NCBI GenBank assembly: GCA_963753005.1
Contig: CAVWAM010000001.1
Span: 457,773-521,772 of the forward strand
DNA: 64,000 nucleotides
Direction: 5' to 3'
From: an uncultured Acidobacteriaceae bacterium
GTDB lineage: Bacteria; Acidobacteriota; Terriglobia; Terriglobales; Acidobacteriaceae
Shown here: piece after piece, positions 3,157 through 55,945 of the stretch
Layout: every line of letters begins with the position of its first letter
Numbering within the stretch: position 1 is the first letter of the stretch
Program-made: the position numbers and the translations under genes
Notes under the pieces: model-generated
The model's input: only the letters and a program-made list of their open reading frames with translations
Database searches by the model: none
Told to the model about the DNA's origin: nothing

Positions 3157-5589
3157 ATGGGCACAGTGGGATTGAGCTTCGGGTCGCCGACCAGCGGCGC
3201 AGGCTTCAACGTCAGCTCCACCGTGGCCGAAATTGTCGGCAATCTTCAAAACGTCGAGACGCCCTGGAAGAACCAGTTGACGGCGCTGGAAAGCCAGGAC
3301 ACGGTGATCTCGAATCTGGGCACGCTGTTCTCGAATCTCTCCAACGATTTGAGTTCCCTGACGGATTTTCAAGGGATCATGGCGCAAAAAGAGGGTTCGA
3401 GCTCCGATACAAGCGTGCTCGAGCTGACTACGGCCTCCTCTTCGGCCACGGCAGGCACGCACACGGTCGTTGTGAAAAATCTCGCCCAGACTTCCAGCGG
3501 CTACCTGGCGGAGATCGCCAACAGCGCCGATAAACTGTCGGGCTCCATCACGCTGCAGGTCGGCAGCGGCAACGCGCAAACCATCGCTCTCAACTCCTCC
3601 GACAACACCCTCTCCGGCTTGGCATCGGCCATCAACAAGTCCGGCGTCGGCGTCACGGCCAGCGTGCTCACCGACGCCAGCGGCTCGCGCCTCAGCCTGG
3701 TCTCCGGCACTTCCGGCGCCGGCGGCAACATCGTCGTCACCGGCAATTCGCTCGCCGCCGCCGCCGCCAACACCCTCGGCTATACGGGAACCGCGGGAAC
3801 TCCCACCTCGAACTCCACCGGCACGCTTTCGCCGGTGTCGAGCCTGAGCGCCGCGCTCTCCGGAACCATGTCCATTCAGGTCGGCAGCGCAACGGCGATA
3901 CCGATCGACATGAGCGACGTGAGCACGGTCGAGGGCGGCGCGACGCTCTCCGACCTTGAGAATTACATCAATTCCACCTTCACGACGCAGGGGGTCCAGG
4001 CCTCCATTGTCGCCAACAGCGACGGCACATCGAGCCTCCAGCTCAACTCCCAGACTCCCGGCGCGGCCGGCACGCTCACCGTCACGTCGAGCCTCGTCGA
4101 CCCCGCAACTGCGCTGGGCTATACCTCCGCCGTCACCGGCTCCAACGCCAGCCTGACGGTAGACGGCGTCAACCTCACCAGCGCGTCCAACACGGTCAGC
4201 AATCTCATTCCCGGCGTCACCTTCCAGTTGCTCGCGCCCAGCGCCGGGGAATCCGATGGCAGCCTCGAGCCGGTGCAGGTCGTCATCGCCAACGACAACA
4301 GCGGCGTCGAAAGCACGATCAACCAGATGGTCAACGACTACAACTCGCTGATCGGCGCCATCAACACGCAGGAGGGCAGCACCAGTTCCGGCACTCCCGA
4401 GCCGCTCTTCGGCTCGCCCACCCTCTCCTTGCTGCAGGAACAGCTCCTGAACGGCTTGAATACGGAAAATCCCAACGGCTATCTGGATTCGGTTTCCTCG
4501 ACCGCGAACACAACGCTGTCCGGCTCCATGACCATCCAGGTGGGAAGCGGGACAACCGAAACCGTCGTGCTCGGACCCGCGCCCAGTTCCCCGGCCGCCA
4601 ACACCATCTACACCGGCTCCGGCAGCGGCGCCTACACGCTGGCCGGCATCGCCGGCGCCATCAACTCGGCCGGCATCGGCGTCACGGCCGGCGTTGCCAC
4701 CAGCAACGGCGAGTCGACCCTGACGCTCACCTCGCAGACTGCCGGAGCGAGCGGAGCGCTCAGTGTTACCTCCTCCATCGCGGCCACCGCGCCCACCCCC
4801 CTGTCGTTCCAAAACGCCGGTTACACCGGTACAACCGCCGACAGCGGAACGCTGGGCACGGTCGCCGCCGGCAGCGACGCGCTCTCCGGCTCCATGACTT
4901 TCCAGGTCGGCGGCGGAATCACGGAAACCGTTGTGATCGGCGCCGCGCCCAGCTCGCCCGCGGCCAACACGGTTTACACCGGAAGCGGAGCCGATACCCT
5001 CTCCGATGTCATGAACGCCGTCAATTCGGCCAGCCTCGGCGTCAACGCCGCCCTCAATAGCGCCGGAACCGGCCTCACGCTGACCTCTTCGGCCAACGGC
5101 ATGGCGGGCGCGCTCGCGGTCGCCTCCCACCTCGTGGATACTACCAGCCCCACCACCACCACCCTGAACTACAACGCCTCATCCGACATCAACTACCTCA
5201 CGGCGCTGGGCATCAGCGTCAACAACGACGGCTCGCTCACCTTCGATGCCAACTCGCTCGATTCCCTGCTCAACACCGATTACAACGGAGTGGCGGGGTT
5301 TTTCCAGAACGCGAACAGTTGGGGGCAGAGCTTCGCCAACATGCTGACCAACGCCGGCACAAGCTCCTCCACCGGAATTCTGAAGCTGGCCCAGTCCTCG
5401 AACAGCACCATCGAGTCCACGCTGAACGCGGAGATATCGAAAGAGAACGCCTACATCTCGGCGCAGCAGAAGAGCCTGACGGCAGAGCTGAACCAGGCCA
5501 ACGAAATCCTGCAGCAGTTGCCCACCGAGTTGCAGGGCATGGACGAGCTCTACTCGGCGATCACCGGCTACAACCAGCAAAAGGGCTGA
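3157..5589 (+). CDS. fliD: Flagellar filament cap protein FliD (unusually long, 4 internal modules)
   Basis: 810 aa. FliD-like N-terminus (FNVSSTVAEIVGNLQNVETPWKNQLTALESQDTVISNLGTL) and C-terminus (...SKENAYISAQQKSLTAELNQANEILQQLPTELQGMDELYSAITGY). Position is fliC-fliD-fliS. Confidence 0.9.
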   Translation: MGTVGLSFGSPTSGAGFNVSSTVAEIVGNLQNVETPWKNQLTALESQDTVISNLGTLFSNLSNDLSSLTDFQGIMAQKEGSSSDTSVLELTTASSSATAGTHTVVVKNLAQTSSGYLAEIANSADKLSGSITLQVGSGNAQTIALNSSDNTLSGLASAINKSGVGVTASVLTDASGSRLSLVSGTSGAGGNIVVTGNSLAAAAANTLGYTGTAGTPTSNSTGTLSPVSSLSAALSGTMSIQVGSATAIPIDMSDVSTVEGGATLSDLENYINSTFTTQGVQASIVANSDGTSSLQLNSQTPGAAGTLTVTSSLVDPATALGYTSAVTGSNASLTVDGVNLTSASNTVSNLIPGVTFQLLAPSAGESDGSLEPVQVVIANDNSGVESTINQMVNDYNSLIGAINTQEGSTSSGTPEPLFGSPTLSLLQEQLLNGLNTENPNGYLDSVSSTANTTLSGSMTIQVGSGTTETVVLGPAPSSPAANTIYTGSGSGAYTLAGIAGAINSAGIGVTAGVATSNGESTLTLTSQTAGASGALSVTSSIAATAPTPLSFQNAGYTGTTADSGTLGTVAAGSDALSGSMTFQVGGGITETVVIGAAPSSPAANTVYTGSGADTLSDVMNAVNSASLGVNAALNSAGTGLTLTSSANGMAGALAVASHLVDTTSPTTTTLNYNASSDINYLTALGISVNNDGSLTFDANSLDSLLNTDYNGVAGFFQNANSWGQSFANMLTNAGTSSSTGILKLAQSSNSTIESTLNAEISKENAYISAQQKSLTAELNQANEILQQLPTELQGMDELYSAITGYNQQKG

Positions 5590-5626
5590 GGCGCGCCCGA
5601 TTTGCCTGAAAAGGAGATGGCACGGA

Positions 5627-6085
5627 ATGGGGGATTATCGCCAACACGCGCTGGACGGCGCCTCGGCTGTCGACCTTGTCGTGGCGCTCTACGACGGCAT
5701 CATCCGCTTTTTGTATGCGGCCATTGCGGCGGTCGATCGCGGCGACGCCGACGGCCGCAGAGCCGCGGTCAAGCGCGCGCTTGACATCATCATTCATCTG
5801 CAGGCGCGGCTGCGCATGGATATGGGCGGCCGGCCGGCCCAGGCGCTCAGCGATTTCTATGCCGCCATCTTCGCCCAGGTTCTGCAGGCATCGCAGTCGG
5901 CCTCCAGGGCGAAATTCGAGCATGCCATCGCCTGCGTGAAGAACGTGCGCGACGCCTGGCGCGAAGTGGCCAAGGATCCGGAGGCAAACTCCGTCTCGCC
6001 GCGCGTGCTCGTCATGCCGCAGCCCGCGCCGCTGAGCGCCGAAACGGCGTTGGATGCGCCTGGATCGTCAAGCTGGACGGCCTGA
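5627..6085 (+). CDS. fliS: Flagellin-specific chaperone FliS
   Basis: 152 aa. AVDLVVALYDGIIRFLYAAIAAVDRGD...RALDIIIHLQARL...LSDFYAAIFAQVL is FliS-like. Sits directly after fliD. Confidence 0.85.
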   Translation: MGDYRQHALDGASAVDLVVALYDGIIRFLYAAIAAVDRGDADGRRAAVKRALDIIIHLQARLRMDMGGRPAQALSDFYAAIFAQVLQASQSASRAKFEHAIACVKNVRDAWREVAKDPEANSVSPRVLVMPQPAPLSAETALDAPGSSSWTA

Positions 6086-6118
6086 CTCGAGCGCCAGCTC
6101 GCCGGCTCTCTGTCTTCC

Positions 6119-6184
6119 AGCTCCGCCAACTCCGCTAACCCCGCCAACTCCGCTAACCCCGCCAACTCCGCTCGCCCCGCCGCC
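6119..6184. repeat. Tandem array of 9-bp units (CTCCGCCAA/CTCCGCTAA/CCCCGCCAA)
   Basis: agCTCCGCCAACTCCGCTAACCCCGCCAACTCCGCTAACCCCGCCAACTCCGCTCGCCCCGCCGCC. It fills the convergent gap between fliS and the ABC exporter and ends at the exporter's stop codon. Confidence 0.9.
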
Positions 6185-8031
6185 TATCCCGCGACCGTCA
6201 GCTCCTCTTCGAGTTGCTGCTTCTGATAGAGGCTTGCGTAGTAACCGTCGAGTGCCAGCAGTTCCTCGTGCCGTCCGATCTCGACGATCATGCCCTTGTC
6301 GAGCACCGCGATGCGGTCGGCGTTGCGCACCGTCGACACGCGGTGCGAGATGAGGAGGGTGGTTGTGTTGGCCGTGTAATTGCGCAGACCTCCAAGAATC
6401 CGCTCTTCCGTGTAGGTGTCTACGCTGGCCAGTGCGTCGTCGAGGATCAGGATGGCGGGGCGGCGCAACAACGCACGGGCGATGGCCGAGCGCTGTTTTT
6501 GCCCGCCGGAGAGCGTGACGCCGCGTTCGCCCACCATGGTTTCAAAGCCCTGCGGAAATTCCTCGAACTCCCGCCGGATGTGCGCTGCACCGGCCGCTTC
6601 CAGCAGCTCTTCGGCGCCGGCGCGAGGCGCCCCAAAGGCCAGGTTTTCGCGGATGGTTTCGCTGAACAGGAAGGTTTCCTGCGGCACCATGCCGATGTTG
6701 CGGCGCAGCACGGCCAGCGGGTAATCGCGGACCGGCCGCCCATCGATCAGGAGCGATCCTTGAGGCGCTTCGTAGAGGCGCGTGATCAAATTTACCAGCG
6801 TGGACTTGCCGCAACCGGTGGGGCCTACGATGGCCAGGCTCGACCCCGCGGGAATGTGGAGCGTGATGTCGCGTAGCACCGGGGTCCCCACGGACGGACC
6901 TTTGTCCGTGGGGTGGAGTACCGGGGTCCCCACGAACAGGTCTTCGTTCGTGGGGTGCAGCGCCGGGCTTTGATCGCGGTCCTCGCCGTAGCCGAACGTC
7001 AGATGACGGAATTCGATCTCGCCCTGCAGTTGGTGATCGGCCAGGATCGCGGGATCGGCGGAGCGGTCATCGATTCCCGGCTCGGCCTTGAGCAATTCGT
7101 CGATGCGCTTCACCGAAGCGGTGCCGCGCTGGAAGATGTTGATCACCCAGCCCACGGCGATGATGGGCCAGATCAGCAGGATCATGTAGGTGTTGAAGGC
7201 GACGAACTGGCCGACCGATATGCGGTGCGCAAGGACCTGGTGCCCGCCGGCCAGCAACGTAATCACCATCGACACGCCAAGGATGAACTCGAGCGTGGGC
7301 CACAACATGCCCATCAGTTGCACCAAGCGCAGCGCGCGCCCGATGTATTGCCGGTTGAGCCGCTCGAAGAGGCCGATCTGCGACTCTTCGCGCGCGAAGG
7401 CCCGGATCAGCCGCACGCCCGAGTAGTTTTCCTGCGCCTGCGCGGAGATGTCGGAGAAGCTGGCCTGGATGCGCTCGAAGCGCTCGTGAATCTTGCGCCC
7501 TAGATACTGGATCAGGATGCTGGCCAGCGGCATGGGCGCCAGCGCCACCAGCGTCAGATAAGGACTGATCCTCAGCATGAAGAACAGCGCGAAGACGCTG
7601 AGGAAGACTGTGTTGGCGCTGTACATCAGAGCTGGGCCGAGCAGCATGCGCACGGCGTTCAGGTCGTTGGTCATGCGCGCCATGATGTCGCCGGTGCGGT
7701 AGCGCTGGTAGAAGCCCGAGTCCTGGATTTCCAGCTTGCGGAAGAGGTCGTTGCGCAGGTCGAATTCGATTTCGCGCGAAATGCCGATCAGGATCCAGCG
7801 TTGCGCATAGAGAAAGACGCCCTTCGCCAGGCTGATGCCGACCAGAATCAACGCAAACAGCAGAATGAGTTTCCCGGTGGTCCCTTTCTCGATCCGGTCC
7901 ACGGCCATGCCCAGAACTCTCGGAAACTGCACCGCGACGATATTCGTGGCCACGCACGCCAGCGTGCCCCGCACGTATCCCCAGCGGTAGCGGCGCATGT
8001 ATTTGTAAAGAGGGGCGAGGTCGCCGAGCAT
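6184..8031 (-). CDS. ABC exporter, fused permease and ATPase (MsbA/multidrug type half-transporter)
   Basis: 615 aa with a 6-TM domain and an NBD carrying Walker A GPTGCGKST, signature LSGGQKQR and Walker B ILILDDA. It carries an in-frame repeat insertion (see 6879-6962). Confidence 0.9.
   Translation of the reverse strand: MLGDLAPLYKYMRRYRWGYVRGTLACVATNIVAVQFPRVLGMAVDRIEKGTTGKLILLFALILVGISLAKGVFLYAQRWILIGISREIEFDLRNDLFRKLEIQDSGFYQRYRTGDIMARMTNDLNAVRMLLGPALMYSANTVFLSVFALFFMLRISPYLTLVALAPMPLASILIQYLGRKIHERFERIQASFSDISAQAQENYSGVRLIRAFAREESQIGLFERLNRQYIGRALRLVQLMGMLWPTLEFILGVSMVITLLAGGHQVLAHRISVGQFVAFNTYMILLIWPIIAVGWVINIFQRGTASVKRIDELLKAEPGIDDRSADPAILADHQLQGEIEFRHLTFGYGEDRDQSPALHPTNEDLFVGTPVLHPTDKGPSVGTPVLRDITLHIPAGSSLAIVGPTGCGKSTLVNLITRLYEAPQGSLLIDGRPVRDYPLAVLRRNIGMVPQETFLFSETIRENLAFGAPRAGAEELLEAAGAAHIRREFEEFPQGFETMVGERGVTLSGGQKQRSAIARALLRRPAILILDDALASVDTYTEERILGGLRNYTANTTTLLISHRVSTVRNADRIAVLDKGMIVEIGRHEELLALDGYYASLYQKQQLEEELTVAG
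6879..6962. mobile_element. Two tandem 42-bp hairpin units inside the ABC exporter CDS
   Basis: CCGGGGTCCCCACGGAC-ggaccttt-GTCCGTGGGGTGGAGTA followed by CCGGGGTCCCCACGAAC-aggtcttc-GTTCGTGGGGTGCAGCG. Each has a perfect 10-bp stem. Translated in-frame as LHPTNEDLFVGTPV and LHPTDKGPSVGTPV. Confidence 0.8.
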
Positions 8032-8131: not shown

Positions 8132-8190
8132 CTGTTCCCTGTTCCCTGTTCCCTGTTCCCTGATCCCTGTTCCCTGTTCCCTGTTCCCTG
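8132..8190. repeat. Heptamer tandem array (CTGTTCC)n, equal to (GGAACAG)n on the minus strand
   Basis: Eight consecutive 7-bp units, one variant being CTGATCC. It ends 6 nt from the lptFG stop codon (8197). The G-rich strand is the lptFG sense strand. Confidence 0.95.
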
Positions 8191-8196
8191 TCTTTC

Positions 8197-10554
8197 TCAC
8201 GTCGGCGTCCTCAGCAGCAGATACCCGCCCACCAGCCCGAACAACACATCGGCGGACCATGCGGCCATCGCTGCGGGCAGGTAATTCACATTGCCCATAG
8301 CCCCGAAAAGCCCATCTACCACCCAGTAGGCAAGCGCCACGGCGATGGCCACGGCGATGCCGGCGAGCGAGCCTCGGCGGCCCATCGACAGCGCAAAGGG
8401 AATCGCCAGCACCGCCATGACCACAGCAATCAGCGGGAAGGCGAGCTTGTGCCACAGGGCGACGCTCAGGCGCTTGGTGTCGAAGCCGCTTTGCCTCAGG
8501 TCGCGGATGTAGCGGTCGAGCTGGCCAAAGCTCATCTCCTGCGATTGCAGATCCTCTTTCTTGAAGTAGTCCGGCCCTGGGTGGATTTCGGGAAACGATG
8601 TCTCGAGGAATGTCCGGTACGTCGTAACGTTGGCGCCCTGGATGCCGCGCGCCCACCCGTTCTCGAAGCGCCATGTGCCGGAATCGGCGTCCCATACGGC
8701 TCTCTTTGCAAAGATGCGCCGCGTCAGTTCGAAGGCCGAAGGATCGAACTCGAACACGGAAAGATTGGCGAACTCATTGCTGTCGGGATCGAAGAACTCG
8801 TAGTAGTAAATGCTGCCCGGCTCGCCGGGCAGCGGCTTGGGGCCAAAGATCCACTTCTGCTCGGGATGCAGGAACGTCTGCGGCGGCCGGCCCTTGATCA
8901 CGTTGCGCAACGCCTCCTGCCTGCGGTTGGCCTGCGGCAGATAGTACTGGTCGAAGAGGAAGAGGCTCACGGCCAGGCACGCCGTGATCGACACAATGGG
9001 AATCACCAACCGGTAGAGGCTGATGCCGGTGGCCTTCATGGCCACGATCTCGCTGTTGCGGTTGAGCACGCCGAAGGTTGCCAGTGCGGCGATCAGAACG
9101 GCCAGCGGCGCAATCTGGTAAAGCATGCTGGGAGTGAGATTCAACAGATACTCGCCCACGATGCCGAGCGCGATGTGGTTGCGCAGAATGTCGCCGATCA
9201 GATCGAAGAACGTAAAGACAATCATCAGCAGCACAAACCCGGCCAGAACCAGCAGGAACATGCCCACAAACTCGCGCACGATGTACTCGTCGAGGATGCG
9301 CGGAAAGATTCCGCGGGACCGTGCCTTAGCCGCTGCGCCGCCTCGCGTCTGGAATCTGTCGAGAAGTCCGCTGAGCGGGAATCCATCCGGCTTGACCGCG
9401 TCCGTGATTCTGGACGGCCGCGCGATCCACGCCGAGATGGCGCTCAGAATCCGGCCGCCCGTCGCCATCTGCCACAGCAGAAAGGTTCCCGCCGCGGCAA
9501 AGAGCAGGTTCGCCGACCACACCGCGAAAAAGGCTGGCAGTTTGCTCTGATGGCCGAGAGCAATGCCCGTGGACGAAAGAAAGTAGTAGACGAACACCAG
9601 CAGAATCGTGAACACGAATCCCGAACTCTTGCCGCCGCGGCGCGAGGCTACGCCCAGGGGAACGCCTACCAGCATCAGCACCAGGCAAGCGGCGGGAAAG
9701 GCGAACCGGTTGTGCAGTTCAATCAGGAATCGCTTGTCGCCGGGGCCGTGGATGCGGCCGAGCAACGCGCTCAAGGGCATGGCATACAGCGCCGTGTCCA
9801 TGCGCCCCAGGTGCACGTCGTTCTGCTGCCCCAGCACCAGCGGCAGATCGGTGGTCGTGAACGTGGAGATATTGGACTGCCCCGGCTGGTCGGCCACGGT
9901 TTCGTCGCGCACGCCGTCGCGCAGCCGCATCAGCAGTTCCTCCGTGTTGTCGGTCACCACGGTGGCGGAGGCGGCGGTAGTGATGATCGGATTGGCGGGG
10001 TCAGAGACGTCGGCCATAAAGACCTGGCGCCAGTTGGCCGCACCCGTGCCCGAACGCACGTCCTGCACATAGAGAACGAAATTGCGAAAGTCTTCGTAGA
10101 AGACGCGCGGCTCAATCTCGTAGGAGGCCTGCAACGTCTCCAGCGACTGCTGCAGATCGATGATCGCCTGGTTGGCGCGGGGCGCGAGATAAAGCGAGTT
10201 GCCCAGCCCCAGCAGCGTGCCCGCAACGGCCACAATCGACGCCACGCGCACAAAGTAGCCGATGCCCAGCCCCGACGCGCGCATGGCGATGATCTCGCTG
10301 TCCGAGGCCAGCCGGCTCAGGCCCAGAAGCACGCCCCACAGCACCGCCATGGGAATCGTCACTTTGAACAGATTGGGCAGCGTGAACAGGAAAACCTGCG
10401 CCGCGTCGGCCCACGTCGAGCTGCTCCGCACCACCACCTCCAGGATGTGCGGCAGCAGCGGCATGAACAGAATGAACGTGAAGAGCGCGCAGCCGATCAG
10501 CGTGAGGGAGAGAATCTCGCCGAGAATGTAGCGGGTGAGGATGCGCACAAACAT
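8197..10554 (-). CDS. lptFG: Fused LptF-LptG-like LPS export permease (two YjgP/YjgQ halves in one ORF)
   Basis: 785 aa. The first half starts MFVRILTRYILGEILSLTLIGCALFTFILF. The second half starts near residue 410 with FPRILDEYIVREFVGMFLLVLAGFVLLMIVFTFFDLIGD. Both starts look like LptF/G N-termini, and each half is about 390 aa. Confidence 0.8.
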   Translation of the reverse strand: MFVRILTRYILGEILSLTLIGCALFTFILFMPLLPHILEVVVRSSSTWADAAQVFLFTLPNLFKVTIPMAVLWGVLLGLSRLASDSEIIAMRASGLGIGYFVRVASIVAVAGTLLGLGNSLYLAPRANQAIIDLQQSLETLQASYEIEPRVFYEDFRNFVLYVQDVRSGTGAANWRQVFMADVSDPANPIITTAASATVVTDNTEELLMRLRDGVRDETVADQPGQSNISTFTTTDLPLVLGQQNDVHLGRMDTALYAMPLSALLGRIHGPGDKRFLIELHNRFAFPAACLVLMLVGVPLGVASRRGGKSSGFVFTILLVFVYYFLSSTGIALGHQSKLPAFFAVWSANLLFAAAGTFLLWQMATGGRILSAISAWIARPSRITDAVKPDGFPLSGLLDRFQTRGGAAAKARSRGIFPRILDEYIVREFVGMFLLVLAGFVLLMIVFTFFDLIGDILRNHIALGIVGEYLLNLTPSMLYQIAPLAVLIAALATFGVLNRNSEIVAMKATGISLYRLVIPIVSITACLAVSLFLFDQYYLPQANRRQEALRNVIKGRPPQTFLHPEQKWIFGPKPLPGEPGSIYYYEFFDPDSNEFANLSVFEFDPSAFELTRRIFAKRAVWDADSGTWRFENGWARGIQGANVTTYRTFLETSFPEIHPGPDYFKKEDLQSQEMSFGQLDRYIRDLRQSGFDTKRLSVALWHKLAFPLIAVVMAVLAIPFALSMGRRGSLAGIAVAIAVALAYWVVDGLFGAMGNVNYLPAAMAAWSADVLFGLVGGYLLLRTPT

Positions 10555-10658: not shown

Positions 10659-10729
10659 ACAATATAACTGCGGCTTTAGCCGCTGTGGGATGTTCCTTTG
10701 CAACTGACCCGTTTGGAGCGGTTGGTTGA

Positions 10730-10766
10730 CTCGCCAACTCGCTAACTCGCCAACTCGCTAACTTGC
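10730..10766. repeat. Tandem array of 8-bp units (CTCGCCAA/CTCGCTAA)
   Basis: CTCGCCAACTCGCTAACTCGCCAACTCGCTAACTTGCC. The copA stop codon (10742-10744) and its last ~7 codons lie inside the array. Confidence 0.9.
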
Positions 10767-13078
10767 CGTATTTCCGGCTGCCACCCTCGCAGCCGCAAAC
10801 TGTTCCCCAGCACGCACACCGAGCTCATCGCCATCGCCGCGGCGGCCAGCCACGGCGTGAGCAGAAGGTGAAACGCGGGATACAGCAGCCCGGCGGCAAG
10901 TGGAATGCCAATCAGGTTGTAGCCCACCGCCCATCCCAGGTTCTGCCGCATGATCCGCAGCGTCTGGCGCGCCAGCGCCAGCGCGGCCGGAATCCCGCCC
11001 GGCTCCGTGCGCAGCAGCAGCACGTCTCCGGCCTCCTGCGCCAGGTCCGCGCCCGTCCCCATCGCGATGCCCGCGTCCGCCTGCGCCAACGCCGCCGCAT
11101 CGTTGATCCCGTCGCCCACCATCGCGATCCGCAGCCCAGCCTTCTGCATCTCGCGAATGCGCGCCAGTTTCCCCGCCGGATCGAGGCTGGCTTCCACCTC
11201 CGTGATTCCCGCCTGCCTCGCGATCGGCGCCGCCGCCTCGGCCGAGTCGCCGGTCAGCATCAGCACCCGAAGCCCCGCTTGACGCAGCGTAGCCATCGCA
11301 CTCGCCGCCTCCGGCCGCAGCGCATCGCGCGCATCGAAATACGCGGCAGGCGCGTTGTCCAATGCCATCCACAACCGCGTCACGCCCGGCTCCGCAACCT
11401 CAACATTGCCCGGAAGCGCGATCCCAAACTCCCGGAACATCGCCTCATTCCCCAAAAGGCAATCGTGCCCTTCCACGCGCGCGGTCAGGCCGCGGCCGGG
11501 CAAAATCTGCGCATCCTCCGCCGCCCTCCACTCGATCCCCCGCCCGCGCGCGGCATCGACAATTGCATGCGCCAGCGGATGATTCGATCGCTCCTCCGCC
11601 GCAGCCGCTATCCGCAGCAGCTCGTATTCTCGCTCCCTAGTCCCTACGTCCCTAGTCCCTGCCGGGGTCCCCGGCGAGCGGTCCGTGCTCGCTGGGGTGG
11701 CTAGTCCCTGTACTTTTTCCAGCACCGGCCGCCCCACCGTCAGCGTCCCCGTCTTGTCCAGCACAATCGCGTCCAGATGCCCCAGCCGCTCCAGCGCCTC
11801 GCCGCCCTTGAACAGCACGCCAAGCTGCGCGCCTCGGCCCACGGCCACCGTCAGCGCGGCAGGCACGGCCAGGCCCATCGCGCACGGGCACGCGATAACC
11901 AGCACCGCCACGGTATTCGCCAGCGCCGGCGGCAGCGAGCGCGCCGCCACGAGCCACGCCACAAACGTGATCGCCGCCAGCCCCAGCACCACCGGCACAA
12001 AAATCGCGCTGGCGCGGTCGGCCAGCCGTTCCATCGGCGCGCGCGAGCTTTGCGCCTGGTCCACCATCCGCGCAATCTGCGCGATCACCGTCTGCTCGCC
12101 CAGCGACTCCGCCCGGCAAACCACCGCGCCGTCGTAGTTCAGCGAACCCGCCAGCACGCGCCCGCCCACGCCGCGCTCCAGCGGCGTCGGCTCGCCCGTC
12201 AGCATGGACTCGTCCACCGTCGTGCGCCCCTCCAGGATCGTCGCGTCCACCGGGAAGCGCTCGCCGGGCAGAACCACCACGCTGTCGCCCGGCCGCACCT
12301 CATCGAGCGGCACGACGGTCTCGACGCCATCCACCAGGCGCCGCGCGGTCACCGGCCGCAGCCGCGAAAGTGAATCGAGCGCCGCCAGCGCTCTGCGTTT
12401 CGCTCGCCCTTCCAGCGCCTTGCCCAGCAGCAGAAAGCCGAGAATCAGCAGAACCGCGTCGTAATAAATCTCGCGTCCCCGCTCTGGCGCCACCGTCGCA
12501 TACGCCGAATACACGAACGCCACTGCGGTCCCCAGGCTCACCAGCGTGTTCATGTTGGTCGAGCCGTGGCGCAGAGCGCGCAGCGCGCTCGCATAGATCC
12601 CGCGCCCCGCCCAGGCGGCAACCACCGCCGTCATCGCCAGCAGAAACCAGCGCACACCGTCCGCCGGCAGCGCATAAAGCCACGGAAGCAGGCGCATCGC
12701 CAGGCGGTCCGGCCCGCTCATCTCGGTTCCCAGTGGCATGGCCAGCAGCATCGCCACAAATCCCGCCGCCAGCGTCACCCCCGCCTTCAAGTCCGCGCCC
12801 GCCGCCGCATCCTCGGCCCGCGCTGCTCCCTCGCCCGTGCGCGGCAACACGGCATCGTACCCCGCTCCGCGAATCGCTGCCACCAACTGCTCGGGCGCGG
12901 CCAGCGCCGGGTCAAACACCACGCTGGCCCGATGCGCCATCAGGTCCACGCGCGCTTGCTCCACGCCCGCCGTCGCGCGCAGCGCCTCCTCCACGTGATG
13001 CTGGCACGAGGCACAGGTCATGCCCAGGACCGGTAGGGTTAGCGATTCTCTAGTGTGCGCGGCCACGACTGGCTCCAA
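10742..13078 (-). CDS. copA: Copper-translocating P1B-type ATPase
   Basis: 778 aa. N-terminal HMA domain GMTCASC, then CPC in a TM helix, DKTGTLT, SNHPLA and GDGINDAAAL. Carries an in-frame repeat insertion (11634-11710). Confidence 0.95.
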   Translation of the reverse strand: MEPVVAAHTRESLTLPVLGMTCASCQHHVEEALRATAGVEQARVDLMAHRASVVFDPALAAPEQLVAAIRGAGYDAVLPRTGEGAARAEDAAAGADLKAGVTLAAGFVAMLLAMPLGTEMSGPDRLAMRLLPWLYALPADGVRWFLLAMTAVVAAWAGRGIYASALRALRHGSTNMNTLVSLGTAVAFVYSAYATVAPERGREIYYDAVLLILGFLLLGKALEGRAKRRALAALDSLSRLRPVTARRLVDGVETVVPLDEVRPGDSVVVLPGERFPVDATILEGRTTVDESMLTGEPTPLERGVGGRVLAGSLNYDGAVVCRAESLGEQTVIAQIARMVDQAQSSRAPMERLADRASAIFVPVVLGLAAITFVAWLVAARSLPPALANTVAVLVIACPCAMGLAVPAALTVAVGRGAQLGVLFKGGEALERLGHLDAIVLDKTGTLTVGRPVLEKVQGLATPASTDRSPGTPAGTRDVGTREREYELLRIAAAAEERSNHPLAHAIVDAARGRGIEWRAAEDAQILPGRGLTARVEGHDCLLGNEAMFREFGIALPGNVEVAEPGVTRLWMALDNAPAAYFDARDALRPEAASAMATLRQAGLRVLMLTGDSAEAAAPIARQAGITEVEASLDPAGKLARIREMQKAGLRIAMVGDGINDAAALAQADAGIAMGTGADLAQEAGDVLLLRTEPGGIPAALALARQTLRIMRQNLGWAVGYNLIGIPLAAGLLYPAFHLLLTPWLAAAAMAMSSVCVLGNSLRLRGWQPEIRQVSELAS
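11634..11710. mobile_element. Composite insertion inside copA: TAGGGAC-type short repeats plus a 39-bp hairpin flanked by a 10-bp direct repeat
   Basis: CTAGTCCCTG (11652-11661), then CCGGGGTCCCCGGCGAGCggtccgtGCTCGCTGGGGTGG (11662-11700), then CTAGTCCCTG (11701-11710). It is preceded by TCCCTAGTCCCTACGTCC. Translated as ...ATPASTDRSPGTPAGTRDVGTRE... Confidence 0.8.
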
Positions 13079-14796: not shown

Positions 14797-14850
14797 GGCC
14801 ACGACTTCACGCGCCGGCAAACGCAATCGCGGCGGGGTAGTGTCTCAGTT

Positions 14851-14936
14851 TGAAGTCGTTTTGAAAGGGCACGAGTTTACTCGTGACGCAAATTGAAGTC
14901 GTTTTGAAAGGGCAAGAGTTTACTCGTGCCGCAAAC
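14851..14936. repeat. Two tandem 43-bp REP-like units
   Basis: TGAAGTCGTTTTGAAAGGGCACGAGTTTACTCGTGACGCAAAT followed by TGAAGTCGTTTTGAAAGGGCAAGAGTTTACTCGTGCCGCAAAC. A third copy lies at 10615-10658. Confidence 0.95.
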
Positions 14937-16641: not shown

Positions 16642-17030
16642 ATGTGCCTCGCCATTCCAGGAAAAGTCGAAGAGATTACCAGCGACGGCATGATCCGCGT
16701 AGGCCGCGTCAACTTCGGCGGCGTGGTCAAGAACGTCTGCCTTGACTACGTACCCGAGGTCGAGGTCGGCGACTACACCATCGTCCACGTCGGCTTTGCC
16801 ATCTCCAAGATCGACGAGGAGACCGCCCGGCAAACCCTTGACGACTTCCGCGCCCTGGGTGTGCTCGACGACGAACTGGCCGGCGAGGAAGAGGCCTTTG
16901 CCCGCGCAGCCAACCGGCCGCAATCGAGTTGCCCCGATGGAAGCTGTTGCAATAAATCCAGCCGCGCCGGTTCCAACTCCGCTAGCCCCGCTAACTCCGC
17001 TAGCTCCGCTAACTTCGCTGCCGGCAGCCA

Positions 17031-17034: not shown

Positions 17035-18170
<1,136 letters not shown>

Positions 18171-18203
18171 TGTTTCGCTTGCGCCTTTCGAATCCTGAAT
18201 GCT

Positions 18204-18248
18204 GTCATCCTGAGCGGAGGTCGCCCGGACGACCGGAGTCGAAGGGTC
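18204..18248. repeat. REP-like element (GTCATCCTGAGCGGAG-gtcgcccggacgacc-GGAGTCGAAGGGTC)
   Basis: Second copy of the 15954-16032 family, located in the 328-bp hypD-hypE spacer. Further filler motifs follow, such as CCTGCCCTGAGCTTGCCGAAGGGC. Confidence 0.85.
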
Positions 18249-18498
18249 TTCGGTTGTCTTTCGCGAAGAGAAGCGGTCAGGCCGCGGAAGCGATACGCAC
18301 TTTGCTGCAAAGAAGACGATCACAGCGGCACGATGTGTGAGGATACGACTTCAAAGCCTGCCCTGAGCTTGCCGAAGGGCGCCGTAAGCCCGGCCAAACC
18401 AATGCGGGGCCTTAGCCCCTGTGCTCACAGCCTTCGCCTTGGCAAGAAAGGGCTGGAGCTGGAATCAATAAGCTGGAAGTTGGGAGTTCTCGAACGCA

Positions 18499-19551
18499 AT
18501 GCCTGATTTCTCCAATTGGTCCTGCCCTCTCCCGCTCGCCGACTATCCCGCCATCGTGATGGGCCACGGCGGCGGAGGCAAGCTCGGCAATGAGCTGGTC
18601 GAGCACTTGTTTCTGCCGGCCTTCCGCAATCCCGCGCTCGAAAATCTGGGCGATGCCGCGGTGCTTGAAGCGGCTGGCGCGCGGCTTGCGCTCAGCACCG
18701 ATTCATTCGTCGTCCAGCCGCTCTTCTTCCCCGGCGGATCGATCGGCGAACTCGCCGTCAACGGAACGGTGAACGATCTAGCCGTCTCCGGCGCGGAACC
18801 GAAGTTCCTGAGCGCGAGTTTCATCCTGGAAGAAGGATTTGCGCTGGCGCAACTGGCGGCAATTGTGGACGCAATGGCAAAGGCCGCTTCCACAGCGGGC
18901 GTCAAGATCGTCACCGGCGACACCAAAGTCGTCGAGCGCGGCCACGGCGACGGCTGCTACATCACGACCGCGGGCGTGGGTGTGCTGCGCGCCGGCATTC
19001 AGGTCGGCCCGCATCGCGCCCGGCCCGGCGATGCCGTCCTCGTCTCCGGTACCATCGGCGACCACGGCATGGCCATCATGAGCGTGCGCGAGGGCCTCGA
19101 ATTCGAGAGCCCCATCCGCTCCGATTGCGCCGCGCTGAACGGGATGATCGCGCAGGTTCTCGATGCCGCGGGCGCGGCCGTCCACGCCATGCGCGACCCC
19201 ACGCGCGGCGGCCTGGCTTCTACGCTGAATGAGATTGCGCAGGCCTCCGATGTAGGCATCGTCATCGACGAAGCCGGCGTTCCGGTGCGGTTTGAGGTGC
19301 AATCGGCGTGCGAGCTGCTCGGCCTCGACCCGGTCTACGTCGCCAACGAGGGAAAAGCCGTATTCTTTGTCGCGCCGGAAGCCGCGGATCGAGTGCTCTC
19401 GGTCCTGCGCGCCCACCCGCTGGGGAAAGACGCCGCGCGCATCGGCCATGTGACCGCGGAGCACAAACGCATGTTGGTCGCGCGCACCGCCATGGGCGCG
19501 AACCGCGTGATTCCCACCATGATCGGCGAGCAGTTGCCGCGCATCTGCTGA
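18499..19551 (+). CDS. hypE: Hydrogenase maturation protein HypE
   Basis: 350 aa, PurM-like fold protein ending in the diagnostic C-terminal ...PRIC. Confidence 0.95.
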   Translation: MPDFSNWSCPLPLADYPAIVMGHGGGGKLGNELVEHLFLPAFRNPALENLGDAAVLEAAGARLALSTDSFVVQPLFFPGGSIGELAVNGTVNDLAVSGAEPKFLSASFILEEGFALAQLAAIVDAMAKAASTAGVKIVTGDTKVVERGHGDGCYITTAGVGVLRAGIQVGPHRARPGDAVLVSGTIGDHGMAIMSVREGLEFESPIRSDCAALNGMIAQVLDAAGAAVHAMRDPTRGGLASTLNEIAQASDVGIVIDEAGVPVRFEVQSACELLGLDPVYVANEGKAVFFVAPEAADRVLSVLRAHPLGKDAARIGHVTAEHKRMLVARTAMGANRVIPTMIGEQLPRIC

Positions 19552-19813
19552 GTTTGCGACGGTCTTCAGGCGGCCGGAGGGCGGCAAACCAAACTTGTCG
19601 CTCCACCCGGCATGCGCTCTTGTTTTCACCCGAAACAAAAACCCTCTCGATCCAATGAGCGGCTTCTAATTACGCCCGTAAGCGAGGTTCGTTCACCAAC
19701 CAGCCGTTCGCGGCTCAAACGCCCCCATTCCGCGCCGATAGATAAGAAAAGGCTAAGACCGCACACAGCCCACACAAGGCTGCCGGTGGACTGCGCCTTC
19801 TGGAACGATCCAA

Positions 19814-22093
19814 ATGCGCCAACGCATAAGACTCGTCTCATTTCTTGCCGCCGCTCTGCTGCTGGCCGGCCGCACAAGTTGCGCGCGCAATGTGGCTCCG
19901 GGCGATTCCAGCGCACTTGCCTCCGCCTCGACGGCGGTTCCGGCAGATCGCCCCGCCGATCCCGCCGTCCGCGCGGCGCTGCCCATTGACGAATCGCAGA
20001 GCGTCACCCTCGAAGGCAATGTGCATCCGCTGGCGCGGGCCGAATTCGACCAGGGCGCAGTGAATCCCGGCGCGCGGCTGGACCGGCTGCTGCTGTTGCT
20101 CAAACCCTCCGCGTCGCAACAGGCCGCGCTTGATGAACTGGTCGCGGCGCAGCAGAATCCGCATTCGCCGCTCTATCATCGCTGGCTTACGCCGGCCGAG
20201 TTTGGCGCACGTTTCGGCGCGGGCGGTGCGGCTCTGGCGCAGGCCACCGCGTGGCTCGCGGCGCACGGTTTCACGGTGGAGGAGATTCCGGCCGGCCAAA
20301 GGCTGGTGGTGTTTTCCGGAACCGCCGGTCAGGTGCTCGACGCCTTCCACACGGAACTGCACCGCTATCGCGTGGACGGCGTGGATCACATCGCCAACGC
20401 CGAGGATCCGCAGATTCCCGCTGCGCTGGCCGGCATAGTGGCAGGCGTGGTTTCGCTCCACGACTTCCGACGCAAGCCGGAGATTCGGGCCGAAACTCCG
20501 CTCGCCGCGCTGCCGCAGTACTCGGCCGGCGGCACGCATTATCTGTTCCCGGCGGACTTCGCCACGATCTACGACCTGAATCCGCTGTACAGCGCGGGGA
20601 CGAATGGGACCGGCAGCTCGATCGCCATCGCCGCGCGCAGCAACATCAAGCTGAGCGACGTGGATACGTTTCGTTCCATGGCCGGTTTGGCGGCCAACGA
20701 TCCCACGGTGATTCTCGACGGCGCGAATCCGGGATGGGTGAAGAACGATCAGGACGAGTCGACGCTGGACGCGGAGTGGAGCGGCGCGGTGGCGCCGGCG
20801 GCGGCGGTCCGCCTCGTCGTTGCGGCCACAACGGCGACAACCGACGGCGTGGACCTGGCGGCCGCATATATCGTGAACCGCAGAACGGCGCCGGTGCTGA
20901 GCCTGAGCTATAGCAGTTGCGAGCAGGAGATGGGCGCGGCGGAGCTGGCTTTCTACAACAGCCTGTGGGAGCAGGCGGCGAGCCAGGGGATGAGCGTCTT
21001 TGTGGCTTCGGGCGATGCGGGCGCGGCCGGCTGCTCCGCGGATACCGCCGGTGCGGGATCGCAGGCCGCGGTAAATGGATTGTGCAGTTCGCCGTACTCC
21101 ACCTGCGTGGGCGGCACGGAGTTCAACGAAGAATCGGATTCCGCGGAGTACTGGTCCACGTCGAACTCGGCGGGTTACGGGTCGGCGCTCGGCTACATTC
21201 CCGAAAAGGTGTGGAACGAGAGCGCGTTGGACGGCGGAACAGGACTGTGGGCTTCAGGCGGGGGCGCCAGCGTGGTCTATGCCCAGCCATCCTGGCAAGA
21301 GGGGGTGAACGGAACCAGCGCGGCCAACGGCATGAGAGCCGTCCCCGACGTGGCGCTGGCGGCTGCCGATCACGACGGCTACTTCCTGGTGGAGAACGGA
21401 TCGTATTTGATCGTTTCGGGAACGTCTGTCGCCTCGCCGTCATTTGCCGGCCTGATGGCGCTTGTGGTGGAGAAGCAGGGCGGTACGGGGCAAGGAAGCG
21501 CCAATGCCGGGCTCTATGCGCTCCTCGATGCAACGTCCAATCCCTTTCACTCCACGCCTTCGGGGAATAACAGCGTTCCGGGCGTCGCGGGGTTCACGGC
21601 CAGCGGCGCGGATTACAACCTGGCCACCGGGCTGGGATCGGTGGATGGCGCGTTGCTGGTGAACGAATGGGGCGCGGAGGTAGAGCCTCCAACACTGACG
21701 CTGACAGCAAAGGTGCAATCGGTCACCGTGCCCCAGAGCGGCTCGGCGGCCGTTGCCTTCACGGCCGTCACCGGAGGATCCTTTGCCGGGAGCATCGCCT
21801 TCACAGTGAGAGGTCTGCCTTCGGGCGTATCGGCTGCGTGGTCCGCGAATCCGCTTACGCCTGCCGCTGGTCCGAGCACAAACAGCGCGACCCTGACTTT
21901 GACGGTTTCCCCGGAAGCATCTGCCGGCGCTTCGACCCTAGCCGTCACGGCTGCGGGCGATGGGCTGGCGTCAACCCAGAGCGTGACTGTGCTGATCCAG
22001 GAGCGCGCGGCAAGCTGTTCCCGGTTCAGTCTGCTGCCTGCGCGATGCAAGCCTCCAGCGCGGACGCCGATTCGGCGAGCCGGTTCGCCATAG
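19814..22093 (+). CDS. Secreted S53 (sedolisin/kumamolisin-like) serine protease with a C-terminal Ig-like region
   Basis: 759 aa. Signal peptide, a pro-kumamolisin-type activation domain (LDRLLLLLKPSASQQAALDELVAAQQNPHSPLYHRWLTPAEF) and the catalytic SGTSVASPSFAGL. Confidence 0.85.
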   Translation: MRQRIRLVSFLAAALLLAGRTSCARNVAPGDSSALASASTAVPADRPADPAVRAALPIDESQSVTLEGNVHPLARAEFDQGAVNPGARLDRLLLLLKPSASQQAALDELVAAQQNPHSPLYHRWLTPAEFGARFGAGGAALAQATAWLAAHGFTVEEIPAGQRLVVFSGTAGQVLDAFHTELHRYRVDGVDHIANAEDPQIPAALAGIVAGVVSLHDFRRKPEIRAETPLAALPQYSAGGTHYLFPADFATIYDLNPLYSAGTNGTGSSIAIAARSNIKLSDVDTFRSMAGLAANDPTVILDGANPGWVKNDQDESTLDAEWSGAVAPAAAVRLVVAATTATTDGVDLAAAYIVNRRTAPVLSLSYSSCEQEMGAAELAFYNSLWEQAASQGMSVFVASGDAGAAGCSADTAGAGSQAAVNGLCSSPYSTCVGGTEFNEESDSAEYWSTSNSAGYGSALGYIPEKVWNESALDGGTGLWASGGGASVVYAQPSWQEGVNGTSAANGMRAVPDVALAAADHDGYFLVENGSYLIVSGTSVASPSFAGLMALVVEKQGGTGQGSANAGLYALLDATSNPFHSTPSGNNSVPGVAGFTASGADYNLATGLGSVDGALLVNEWGAEVEPPTLTLTAKVQSVTVPQSGSAAVAFTAVTGGSFAGSIAFTVRGLPSGVSAAWSANPLTPAAGPSTNSATLTLTVSPEASAGASTLAVTAAGDGLASTQSVTVLIQERAASCSRFSLLPARCKPPARTPIRRAGSP

Positions 22094-50475: not shown

Positions 50476-50530
50476 GAAATTGAGGCAGGAAAAAATTCTT
50501 TATTTAATTTCTCCTTTCAGAAGGCAGCAG

Positions 50531-50566
50531 GGTTGGCGGAGTTAGCGGGGTTGGCGGAGTTAGCGC
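50531..50566. repeat. 9-bp unit array (GGTTGGCGGAGTTAGCGG x2), reverse complement of the 6119/16975 family
   Basis: GGTTGGCGGAGTTAGCGGGGTTGGCGGAGTTAGCGC. Confidence 0.9.
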
Positions 50567-50754: not shown

Positions 50755-50810
50755 CAGGGAACAGGGACCAGGGACCAGGGATCATGGGTCAGGGGTCAGG
50801 GATTGGGGGC
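50755..50810. repeat. Heptamer array CAGGGAA/CAGGGAC/CAGGGAT/CAGGGGT
   Basis: CAGGGAACAGGGACCAGGGACCAGGGATCATGGGTCAGGGGTCAGGGATTGGGGG. Same family as 8132-8190 and 55440-55477. Confidence 0.95.
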
Positions 50811-51059: not shown

Positions 51060-53908
<2,849 letters not shown>

Positions 53909-55439: not shown

Positions 55440-55477
55440 CAGGGAACAGGGAACAGGGAACAGGGATCAGGGAACAG
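55440..55477. repeat. Heptamer array (CAGGGAA)n
   Basis: CAGGGAACAGGGAACAGGGAACAGGGATCAGGGAACAG. It starts 4 nt after the stop codon of the 7-TM gene, and the G-rich strand is that gene's sense strand. Confidence 0.95.
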
Positions 55478-55840: not shown

Positions 55841-55945
55841 CAGCTAACAGCTTTCAGCCGTCAGCTCTCAGCCGTCAGCTCTCAGCCGTCAGCTCTCAGC
55901 TCTCAGCCGTCAGCTCTCAGCTCTCAGCCGTCAGCTCTCAGACAA
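55841..55945. repeat. 15-unit heptamer array (CAGCTCT / CAGCCGT) in the rplU-rpmA spacer
   Basis: CAGCTAA CAGCTTT CAGCCGT CAGCTCT CAGCCGT CAGCTCT CAGCCGT CAGCTCT CAGCTCT CAGCCGT CAGCTCT CAGCTCT CAGCCGT CAGCTCT CAGACAA. A short inverted partial copy (GGCTGAAAGCGGAAGGCTGAGAGC) lies at 55987-56010. Confidence 0.95.

Follow-up and report, generated by a model that had tools for sequence, protein, structure and literature searches.

Two in-frame tandem hairpin units in an Acidobacteriaceae ABC exporter gene, members of a dispersed and probably REP-like repeat family

The repetitive extragenic palindromic elements known as REPs are short (~30-40 nt), G+C-rich imperfect palindromes that occur in many dispersed, mostly extragenic copies, form groups and vary in their stems in a compensatory manner. 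The palindromic elements of Rickettsia (RPEs), which measure ~100-150 bp and are restricted to that genus, lie in frame in many unrelated working genes and are translated as surface-loop segments. A minority of REPs is also found in frame within genes, to which they add ~14-30 amino acids or more; uvrA, mutS and helicase genes are prominent among these hosts, and in-frame REPs and RPEs alike have been reported above all from uvr and other repair genes (PMC3733652). In the insertion sequences of the IS200/IS605 family and the non-autonomous palindrome-associated transposable elements (PATEs), the ends are defined by hairpins, insertion leaves no duplication and may use the loops of hairpins that are possibly single-stranded, G.T pairs are tolerated in a strand-asymmetric way and a short adjacent sequence is preferred. 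Finally, the class 3 HuH-Y1 proteins of Acidobacteria and Planctomycetes are associated with high-copy 'atypical secondary structures', amounting to hundreds of small hairpins per genome in Solibacter usitatus (PMC6006769). Here we describe a hairpin unit of about 42 nt that is present twice, in tandem and in frame, within an ABC exporter gene of an uncultured Acidobacteriaceae bacterium (assembly GCA_963753005.1, contig CAVWAM010000001.1, positions 457,773 to 521,772), the whole 64,000-nt stretch being referred to below as the window and all positions being those of the window. We consider it quite probable that this element is a REP-like, non-autonomous, dispersed hairpin repeat of Acidobacteriaceae that landed in frame in a tolerant loop of the nucleotide-binding domain (NBD) of the exporter.

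The exporter is of the ABCB type and is encoded by a 615-amino-acid open reading frame (ORF) on the minus strand (6184..8031), in which a transmembrane domain (PF00664, residues 23-290) is fused to the NBD (PF00005, residues 386-534); the solved structures most similar to it in phmmer searches are ABCB1, TmrAB and TM287/288. Positions 6879-6962 hold two head-to-tail units of 42 nt, spaced by 42 nt and 81% identical to each other, which were recovered by a repeat search and by Tandem Repeats Finder (TRF). Each contains a perfect 10-bp inverted repeat around an 8-nt loop (6886-6895/6904-6913 and 6928-6937/6946-6955), and a single pair distinguishes the two stems, G-C in the first and A-T in the second, in exact agreement with an earlier note on this DNA that had reported two tandem 42-bp hairpin units with perfect 10-bp stems. 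Unit A, nearer the 5' end of the gene (6921..6962, minus strand), is made up of the spacer CGCTG, CA, the hairpin CCCCACGAAC-GAAGACCT-GTTCGTGGGG (6928-6955) and the tail ACCCCGG (6921-6927), and unit B (6879..6920, minus strand) of the spacer TACTC, CA, the hairpin CCCCACGGAC-AAAGGTCC-GTCCGTGGGG (6886-6913) and again ACCCCGG (6879-6885). Both are read in frame directly before VLRDITLHIPAGSSLAIVGPTGCGKST and contribute 14 amino acids each, LHPTNEDLFVGTPV and LHPTDKGPSVGTPV respectively, so that their translation inside the NBD as 14 + 14 codons, claimed in the same note, is borne out by the ORF and its two Pfam domains. The pentanucleotide CCCGG (6963..6967, minus strand), situated 5 nt upstream of unit A, is a target-like counterpart of the unit-terminal ACCCCGG, and TGCTA (6874..6878, minus strand), with which the native V-L-R-D codons resume after unit B, echoes the inter-unit spacer pattern TGCT/TACT/CGCT. 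Compared with dinucleotide-preserving shuffles, the window contains an excess of CCCCACGRAC (4 observed, 0.36 expected), of CCCCAC..GTGGGG (2 observed, 0.08 expected) and of the full hairpin pattern with up to three mismatches (2 observed, 0.00 expected), and the whole 64 kb contain only ~9 perfect hairpins whose stems reach 9 bp or more.

The two units belong to a family with the consensus (T)CCA-CCCCA-NNGAC-GAAGACCT-GTCNN-TGGGG-ACCCCGG, in which a unit of ~42 nt comprises a 5-nt spacer, (T)CCA, a stem of 10-12 bp, the loop and the ACCCCGG tail, the 42-nt period being simply the consensus plus a spacer of ~5 nt. The stem opens with CCCCA and closes with TGGGG, its inner 5-7 bp vary among copies yet remain complementary, and both the loop (GAAGACCT or AAAGACC) and the tail are conserved; a second class has a longer stem (..AAGCC-AAAACC-GGGCTT..). 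When copies are collected with a pattern that forces only the five outer stem pairs, at least four of the five unforced inner positions are paired in 117 of 127 raw pattern matches, against 3% in shuffled interiors. Across 70 distinct copies, 97.4% of the cells are paired, columns 12/29 and 13/28 display all four Watson-Crick pair types (CG, GC, AU and UA) and the covariation score amounts to 0.319, compared with 0.068 after shuffling and reached in none of 500 shuffles, and pairing falls to 37-46% when the 3' partner is slid as a control. This is the covariation analysis that the earlier note had proposed: because the stems covary so strongly throughout the family, propagation or selection acts on the hairpin, which defines the family, and the loop and flanks are its constant parts. 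Stem mismatches on the CACCCCA strand are asymmetric, with 77 A.C/C.A against 18 G.T/T.G (p = 7e-10, counts that include copies related by descent and hence non-independent events), and it is therefore the complementary strand that keeps G.T wobbles. Furthermore, 74% of the copies are open in all six frames, compared with 33% of composition-matched shuffles, and the residue pairs that covary in the translated copies (T..V, S..L, I..M and N..L) are explicable only at the DNA level. Searches of Rfam returned only chance hits below threshold at 6700-7150 (E-value mode) and, at gathering threshold over 33 related loci, tRNAs and one thiamine pyrophosphate riboswitch, none of them at the element.

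The element is widely dispersed. A scan of one genome per species with the pattern CACCCCA-N17-22-TGGGGACCCCGG yielded at least 119 stretches; among the matches listed, ~100 are from Acidobacteriota, mostly Acidobacteriaceae and metagenome-assembled genomes (MAGs) of Terracidiphilus, and one cultured carrier is represented, Tunturibacter empetritectus M8US30 (L145). In 1.04 Mb of Acidobacteriaceae loci that had been picked for the exporter and not for the motif, 14 copies lie outside the exporter gene, which corresponds to 13.5 per Mb. A scan of a viral collection yielded 23 stretches, and one predicted viral contig, IMGVR_UViG_3300035696_000011 (134 kb; L200, L201, L204, L207, L209 and L222), contains at least seven copies with six different stems. 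Nearly all multi-copy loci are arranged head to tail with a spacing of 41-46 nt or ~63 nt, inverted pairs being confined to the gp6 subfamily (L081 and L112), and neighbouring units with different, fully paired stems recur in other arrays (L091, L106, L023 and L177). In the window, unit A, the one with the CGAAC stem, shows only 81% identity to its own neighbour but agrees at 36 of 37 positions with a copy that another genome carries at an unrelated locus (L125); units A and B may be distinct members of the family. The compensatory stem change highlighted by the earlier note is real, in that pairing is kept, but it need not have arisen in place. Slippage cannot account for arrays of differing stems; the insertion of a second member beside the first can. 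A universal RNA motif was considered as well and rejected: since CCCC...GGGG hairpins are so common, the hits in other groups (Nitrospirota, Thermus, Cloacimonadota and others) most plausibly reflect flanks that match by chance on unrelated hairpins of a terminator or REP type. As a separate observation, a Defluviitaleaceae MAG (WRAW01; L095, L099 and L137) carries five long-stem copies, CCCCAYRAAGCC-AAAAYC-GGGCTTYRTGGGG, near clpX/clpP and mreB, intermingled with another hairpin, AGCGTACC..GGTACGCT; these copies may represent a real family or horizontal spread, or a binning error.

The position of the units within the exporter could be established from solved and environmental homologues. In phmmer alignments to solved ABCB-type chains, the alignment stops at query residue 350 and restarts at 384, and the solved chains have ~4 residues where the exporter has 33; judged by this break, the insert occupies the turn that joins the first and second β-strands of the NBD, just past the A-loop tyrosine. 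Of 68 metagenomic orthologues read as DNA, 56 are empty, with a linker of 4 or 8 residues, and 12 are filled, so the statement in the earlier note that related exporters have only a few residues there, and its view of the units as inserted into a loop that is usually short and lies immediately ahead of Walker A, both proved right. Among the 120 closest proteins, which stem from Terracidiphilus, Ca. Sulfotelmatomonas and other Acidobacteriaceae and are 583-652 amino acids long and 82-100% identical, length variation is confined to the unit site: most have a linker of 4 amino acids (GETP or GDTP) or 8 amino acids between F(S/G)Y and VLRDISL, and in the others this base linker is extended by HPTDKDPSVGTPVL-like units amounting to 14, 28, 42 or more residues. 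The number of units ranges from 0 to 5 among near-identical orthologues, those of 82-93% identity having 0, 1, 2, 3 or more, and the distribution of presence and absence over 116 orthologues of at least 82% identity needs at least 15 gains or losses by Fitch parsimony, on a neighbour-joining tree built from the exporter proteins with the linker removed. Neighbouring copies are identical in, for example, P0004 and L024, the latter with three of them, and the exporters of L058 and L034 have an older copy whose loop encloses a further element. A predicted AlphaFold2 model of the exporter renders residues 346-386 as coil with the lowest per-residue confidence (pLDDT), a weak hint given that the whole model is poor (mean pLDDT 46.8).

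The same comparison reveals what happens to the hairpin once it is in the gene. In the comparison with orthologues that the earlier note had put forward, some orthologous exporters do carry units at the same site, but the hairpin is not conserved in them: stem pairing is 9/10 in L021, L011 and L024 and 8/10 in L043 and the second unit of L002, and the stems of L009 and L001 are hardly recognisable although these copies are still translated, the decayed copies of L001 and P0015 forming an acidic, proline-rich linker. The hairpin is therefore not maintained within the exporter gene, and the pattern is that of a recent insertion that decays. Since orthologous stems decay while the copies continue to be translated, a function of the hairpin for the exporter mRNA or protein is unlikely, and the same pattern speaks against a protein module under selection.

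Elsewhere, copies of the element are found in a broad set of genes, with Pfam domains flanking the insert on both sides in the ABC exporter, CopA, GcvPB, CoaE, UvrA, MutS, an Lhr helicase, a GH67 glycosidase, an AMP-binding, acyl-CoA-synthetase-like enzyme, DHPS and a NuoE-like protein. Depending on the host gene, the element is read in various frames and on either strand, giving LHPTDKSPSVGTPV in CopA, GSPRTGLGPWGG in GcvPB (two copies) and KAGVPSDRSSSLGW in CoaE, where six tandem copies lie inside the kinase domain. The last case, a dephospho-CoA kinase gene at L185:3172-4122, contains six 42-nt copies and hence 84 extra residues, encoded on the strand opposite to that used in the exporter. 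The proposal that the units belong to a wider motif family including copA was also confirmed: the copA gene of the window (10742..13078, minus strand) has a degenerate third copy in frame at 11662..11699 (minus strand), CA-CCCCAGCGAGC-ACGGACC-GCTCGCCGGGG-ACCCCGG, translated as TPASTDRSPGTPAG, and the copA gene of L018 has a clean in-frame copy, DAV[LHPTDKSPSVGTPV]LPRE, at a site with GCGGTGCT. The degenerate copy is directly followed by a run of GGGACTA/GGGACGT heptamers, likewise translated (GTRDVGTRE), copy and run together lying at 11634-11700 (minus strand). Repair and helicase genes are over-represented among the hosts, which is reminiscent of the REPs that Di Nocera et al. 2013 described within genes (PMC3733652). 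Because frames and strands differ among hosts and stop-free copies are common, the peptide is a by-product of the DNA element and not the selected unit.

The surroundings of the copies give some indication of how they may insert. Across the family, a target-site duplication is not general, and only a weak signal appears at one offset (2.83 matches of 7, compared with 2.24 in the shuffled null). Upstream of CCCCA, a CGG ends at a distance of exactly 7 nt in 27 of 133 copies and at 9 nt in 10 of them, where the background is a few per position; many copies are thus preceded by a CCGG, as far away as the tail of the element itself, ACCCCGG, would stand in an array. In 30 of 56 empty exporter alleles a CCGG is native at the T-P-V-L codons (ACN-CCG-GTG-CTN), which give CCGGTGCT. 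The unit boundaries AGCACC/AGTACC/AGCGCC, in which the earlier note saw a possible duplicated target, are the reverse complement of CCGG plus spacer (GGTGCT/GGTACT/GGCGCT). Because the native T-P-V-L codons supply CCGG, it is plausible that the boundaries hold a repeat of target-like or microhomology type, but as a general duplication the idea does not extend to the family. Empty sites can be recovered for three insertions. In L159, excising 44 nt restores the intact ORF of a REP-associated tyrosine transposase (RAYT; NF047646, 109 bits), in L098 the GTAG-type REP that immediately follows another RAYT gene holds a copy in its loop, and in L058 and L034 the target is the element's own loop. As regards the transposase genes themselves, that of L098 (5541-6272) is intact (NF047646, 91 bits) and its flanks (5380-6520) carry GTAG-type REPs, GTAGCGCCGCGCTCYAGCGCGGTTGTCGTGCGGGC..., and the second one, at L159:7050-7850, is flanked by CCCACTCATTCGC...GCGAATGAGTGGG hairpins and frameshifted by the 44-nt element copy; a copy of the flanking hairpin type seems to be translated inside it (GAPLIASFAMSGFP).

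On the reading that we favour, that of a REP-like non-autonomous repeat, one or two units would have entered the exporter gene beside the native CCGG-TGCT of the T-P-V-L codons, and the reading frame would have stayed open because 42 equals 3 x 14 and the unit is free of stops. The 28 extra residues would be tolerated in the turn between β-1 (IEFRHLTFGY, with the A-loop tyrosine) and β-2 (VLRDITLHI), after which copy number would turn over rapidly through new insertion beside an ACCCCGG end, through slippage or through precise loss between direct repeats, and old copies would shed their stems and become ordinary linker. The element itself may move or be copied as a single-stranded hairpin, with an enzyme recognising the constant loop and flanks and inserting it at CCGG-like or single-stranded sites, akin to the 'peel and paste' of HUH/Y1 enzymes (RAYT or IS200/IS605-type) and with no target duplication. 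The preference for CCGG, the insertions into hairpin loops, the wobble asymmetry and the lack of a general duplication suggest such a single-stranded intermediate, acting via loop and tail at CCGG-like or single-stranded sites; the mobilisation step itself we infer. Peptide and mRNA hairpin are then best read as by-products and not as adaptations of the exporter.

Several observations weigh against this reading. The GTAG/CGTC tag of classical REPs is absent from the element, and its arrays run head to tail and are not the inverted pairs of REP doublets forming hairpins (REPINs). The share of copies outside genes (~75-90%, with ~10-25% inside) is a rough one, derived from a home-made codon-score caller trained on the long ORFs of the loci. 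A search of ~2 Mb by regular expression and tblastn found two RAYT genes (L098 and L159, both above the NF047646 cutoff), neither flanked by the element, and 27 places representing three further Terriglobales RAYT orthogroups (L223-L249) contained zero element copies within 3 kb, although an unseen cognate RAYT may exist given the limited sampling. All exporter copies could also go back to one old insertion followed by repeated precise deletion, gain and loss being indistinguishable at the site, and the covariation, the conserved loop and the wobble asymmetry fit a host function of the intergenic copies as well, in which case 'selfish' would be too strong a word.

This last point leads to the most serious of the other explanations, namely that the family is a structural element serving its host, either as an RNA hairpin of 3' untranslated regions with a role in mRNA stability or termination or, at the DNA level, as a gyrase or nucleoid-protein site, with the genic copies as collateral. 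Strong covariation, conservation of loop and flanks and strand-asymmetric mismatches that leave G.T wobbles on one strand speak for such a role, and the same has been argued in the literature for REPs (PMC3733652). According to the gene caller, copies are about twice as frequent per region in convergent intergenic regions as in tandem or divergent ones, and the orientation trend in co-directional intergenic regions (41 vs 26) points weakly the same way, but with p = 0.09 it is not significant. No T run follows the hairpin, no context is free of copies, with 16 of them lying in divergent intergenic regions and others in essential genes, they disrupt a RAYT gene and their presence differs among close relatives; we therefore regard a host-serving element as possible but rather unlikely. 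More doubtful is a further reading, in which the family would form a separate class of mini mobile elements, each a single hairpin whose loop GAAGACCT and ACCCCGG tail are read by an enzyme, inserting free of duplication near CCGG-like sites and into hairpin loops, including at its own 3' end. If true, it would explain the head-to-tail arrays of units with different stems, as well as genes with ACN-CCG-GTG (T-P-V) as recurrent insertion sites.

The remaining alternatives concern the exporter gene alone. A purely local origin, by which a native 14-codon stretch of the exporter was duplicated by slippage that the hairpin merely promoted, with no mobile element involved, has to contend with the same 37-nt core at many unrelated loci and genes, with the complete absence of units from most orthologues and with the fact that the units of the window differ in stem, loop and spacer, one of them being closer to a copy at a foreign locus. 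The head-to-tail arrangement, the identical adjacent copies of P0004 and L024 and the short direct repeats at the unit borders do speak for slippage, which is the likely cause of identical neighbours; as a full explanation it is refuted by the dispersed copies, and we give a purely local repeat hardly any credence. It is just as difficult to see in the insert a functional protein module, that is, a flexible 14-residue repeat that tunes the NBD, for example its dimerisation or partner binding. The insert does stay in frame, and even its decayed copies (L001 and P0015) are translated and acidic and proline-rich, but its number varies from 0 to 5 among near-identical orthologues, the same DNA is read in other frames or on the other strand in other proteins, the covarying residue pairs make sense at the DNA level only and the predicted structure, in a model that is weak overall, is coil at the lowest confidence, all of which makes a protein module scarcely believable. 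A role of the hairpins in cis on the exporter mRNA, through pausing of the ribosome or RNA polymerase or through RNase processing between the transmembrane and ATPase halves, is also very unlikely: most orthologues are without the insert, stems decay where it is present and the same element occupies arbitrary positions in other genes, even if the two-unit RNA has a predicted fold of -53 kcal/mol (z = -4.1 vs shuffles) and lies at a domain boundary.

Set beside the systems introduced above, the element, with its hairpin of 27-31 nt, shares with REPs the short G+C-rich palindrome, the dispersed, mostly extragenic and grouped copies with compensatory stem variation, and the minority read in frame. 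It departs from them in its flanks, (T)CCA on the 5' side and ACCCCGG on the 3' side, which are neither GTAG (GT[AG]G) nor CGTC, the true GTAG REP of L098 being a different sequence; in its conserved parts, which are the loop and the 3' tail; in its head-to-tail arrays with a period of 42-44 nt, as opposed to inverted pairs; and in its relation to RAYTs, since none of those at L098, L159 and the 27 further places is flanked by it, those of L098 and L159 own other REP types and one of these two is disrupted by it. The likeness to RPEs is one of behaviour, the element being ~42 bp long, expanding in tandem up to six copies (coaE) and varying in copy number among near-identical orthologues. With IS200/IS605 and PATEs it seems to share the hairpin-defined ends, the duplication-free insertion into possibly single-stranded hairpin loops, the asymmetric tolerance of G.T and signs of a short preferred adjacent sequence (CCGG 5 nt upstream in ~28% of copies), but it consists of one hairpin instead of separate left and right ends, no TnpA was found associated with it and its mechanism is one that we infer. 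The class 3 HuH-Y1 hairpins share a host in Acidobacteria and are described with a 5' CnGA foot, a comparison made by description only (PMC6006769); no class 3 HuH-Y1 gene was seen in the loci examined. Two further candidates were rejected: a transposable element of the miniature inverted-repeat type (MITE) would be 70-300 bp long compared with ~42 nt, with terminal inverted repeats and a target-site duplication, and flank identity here is close to the shuffled null, with no general duplication; a CRISPR array would have unique spacers of ~30 nt or more and cas genes nearby, but here only 5 nt separate one unit from the next, and units are found within genes and also dispersed singly. The literature that we searched holds no description of this hairpin family, which is best filed as a new REP-like family in Acidobacteriaceae, the phenomenon itself being known.

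Other repeats and features of the window may be recorded here. Between genes, 7-mers are repeated in tandem up to 13 times at 8132-8191, 50755-50802, 55440-55477 and 55848-55941 (CTGTTCC, or GGAACAG on the other strand, CAGGGAC, CAGGGAA and CAGCTCT). Tandem 9/18-mers (CCAACTCCG / CCGCTAACC and relatives) are situated near gene ends at 6117-6181, 10729-10767, 16975-17019 and 50526-50565, and in L002 and L020 arrays like these adjoin a different hairpin, CCCCACCCAAGC...GCTTGGGTGGGG. TRF also reports two 95%-identical tandem copies of an A+T-richer 43-nt unit (TTGAAGTCGTTTTGAAAGGGCAAGAGTTTACTCGTGACGCAAA) at 14850-14935. A single 785-amino-acid ORF at 8197-10554 (minus strand) has two LptF/LptG permease domains and looks like an LptF-LptG fusion. 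GC skew is negative to ~20 kb, changes sign near 18000-20000 and is positive beyond, and gyrB is located at 51060-53717; the window may lie near the replication origin, or the skew may result from gene orientation.

The family does not introduce a new biological principle, translated in-frame palindromic repeats having been known since the RPEs of Rickettsia. Its significance is of a more practical kind. For annotation, it explains why enzymes of Acidobacteriaceae that are conserved in other respects contain segments of variable length, such as HPTDKDLSVGTP, GVPSDRSSSLGW and GSPRTGLGPWGG; these segments can now be recognised and masked. The copies within genes provide naturally occurring insertions of 14 residues, graded from 0 to 6 copies, in defined surface loops of essential proteins, among them the ABC NBD, CoaE, UvrA, MutS and GcvPB, which is useful for studying insertion tolerance. 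Finally, a REP-like family that has neither the GTAG tag nor an evident RAYT and that targets other hairpins is present in at least one cultured strain, which makes its spread experimentally accessible.

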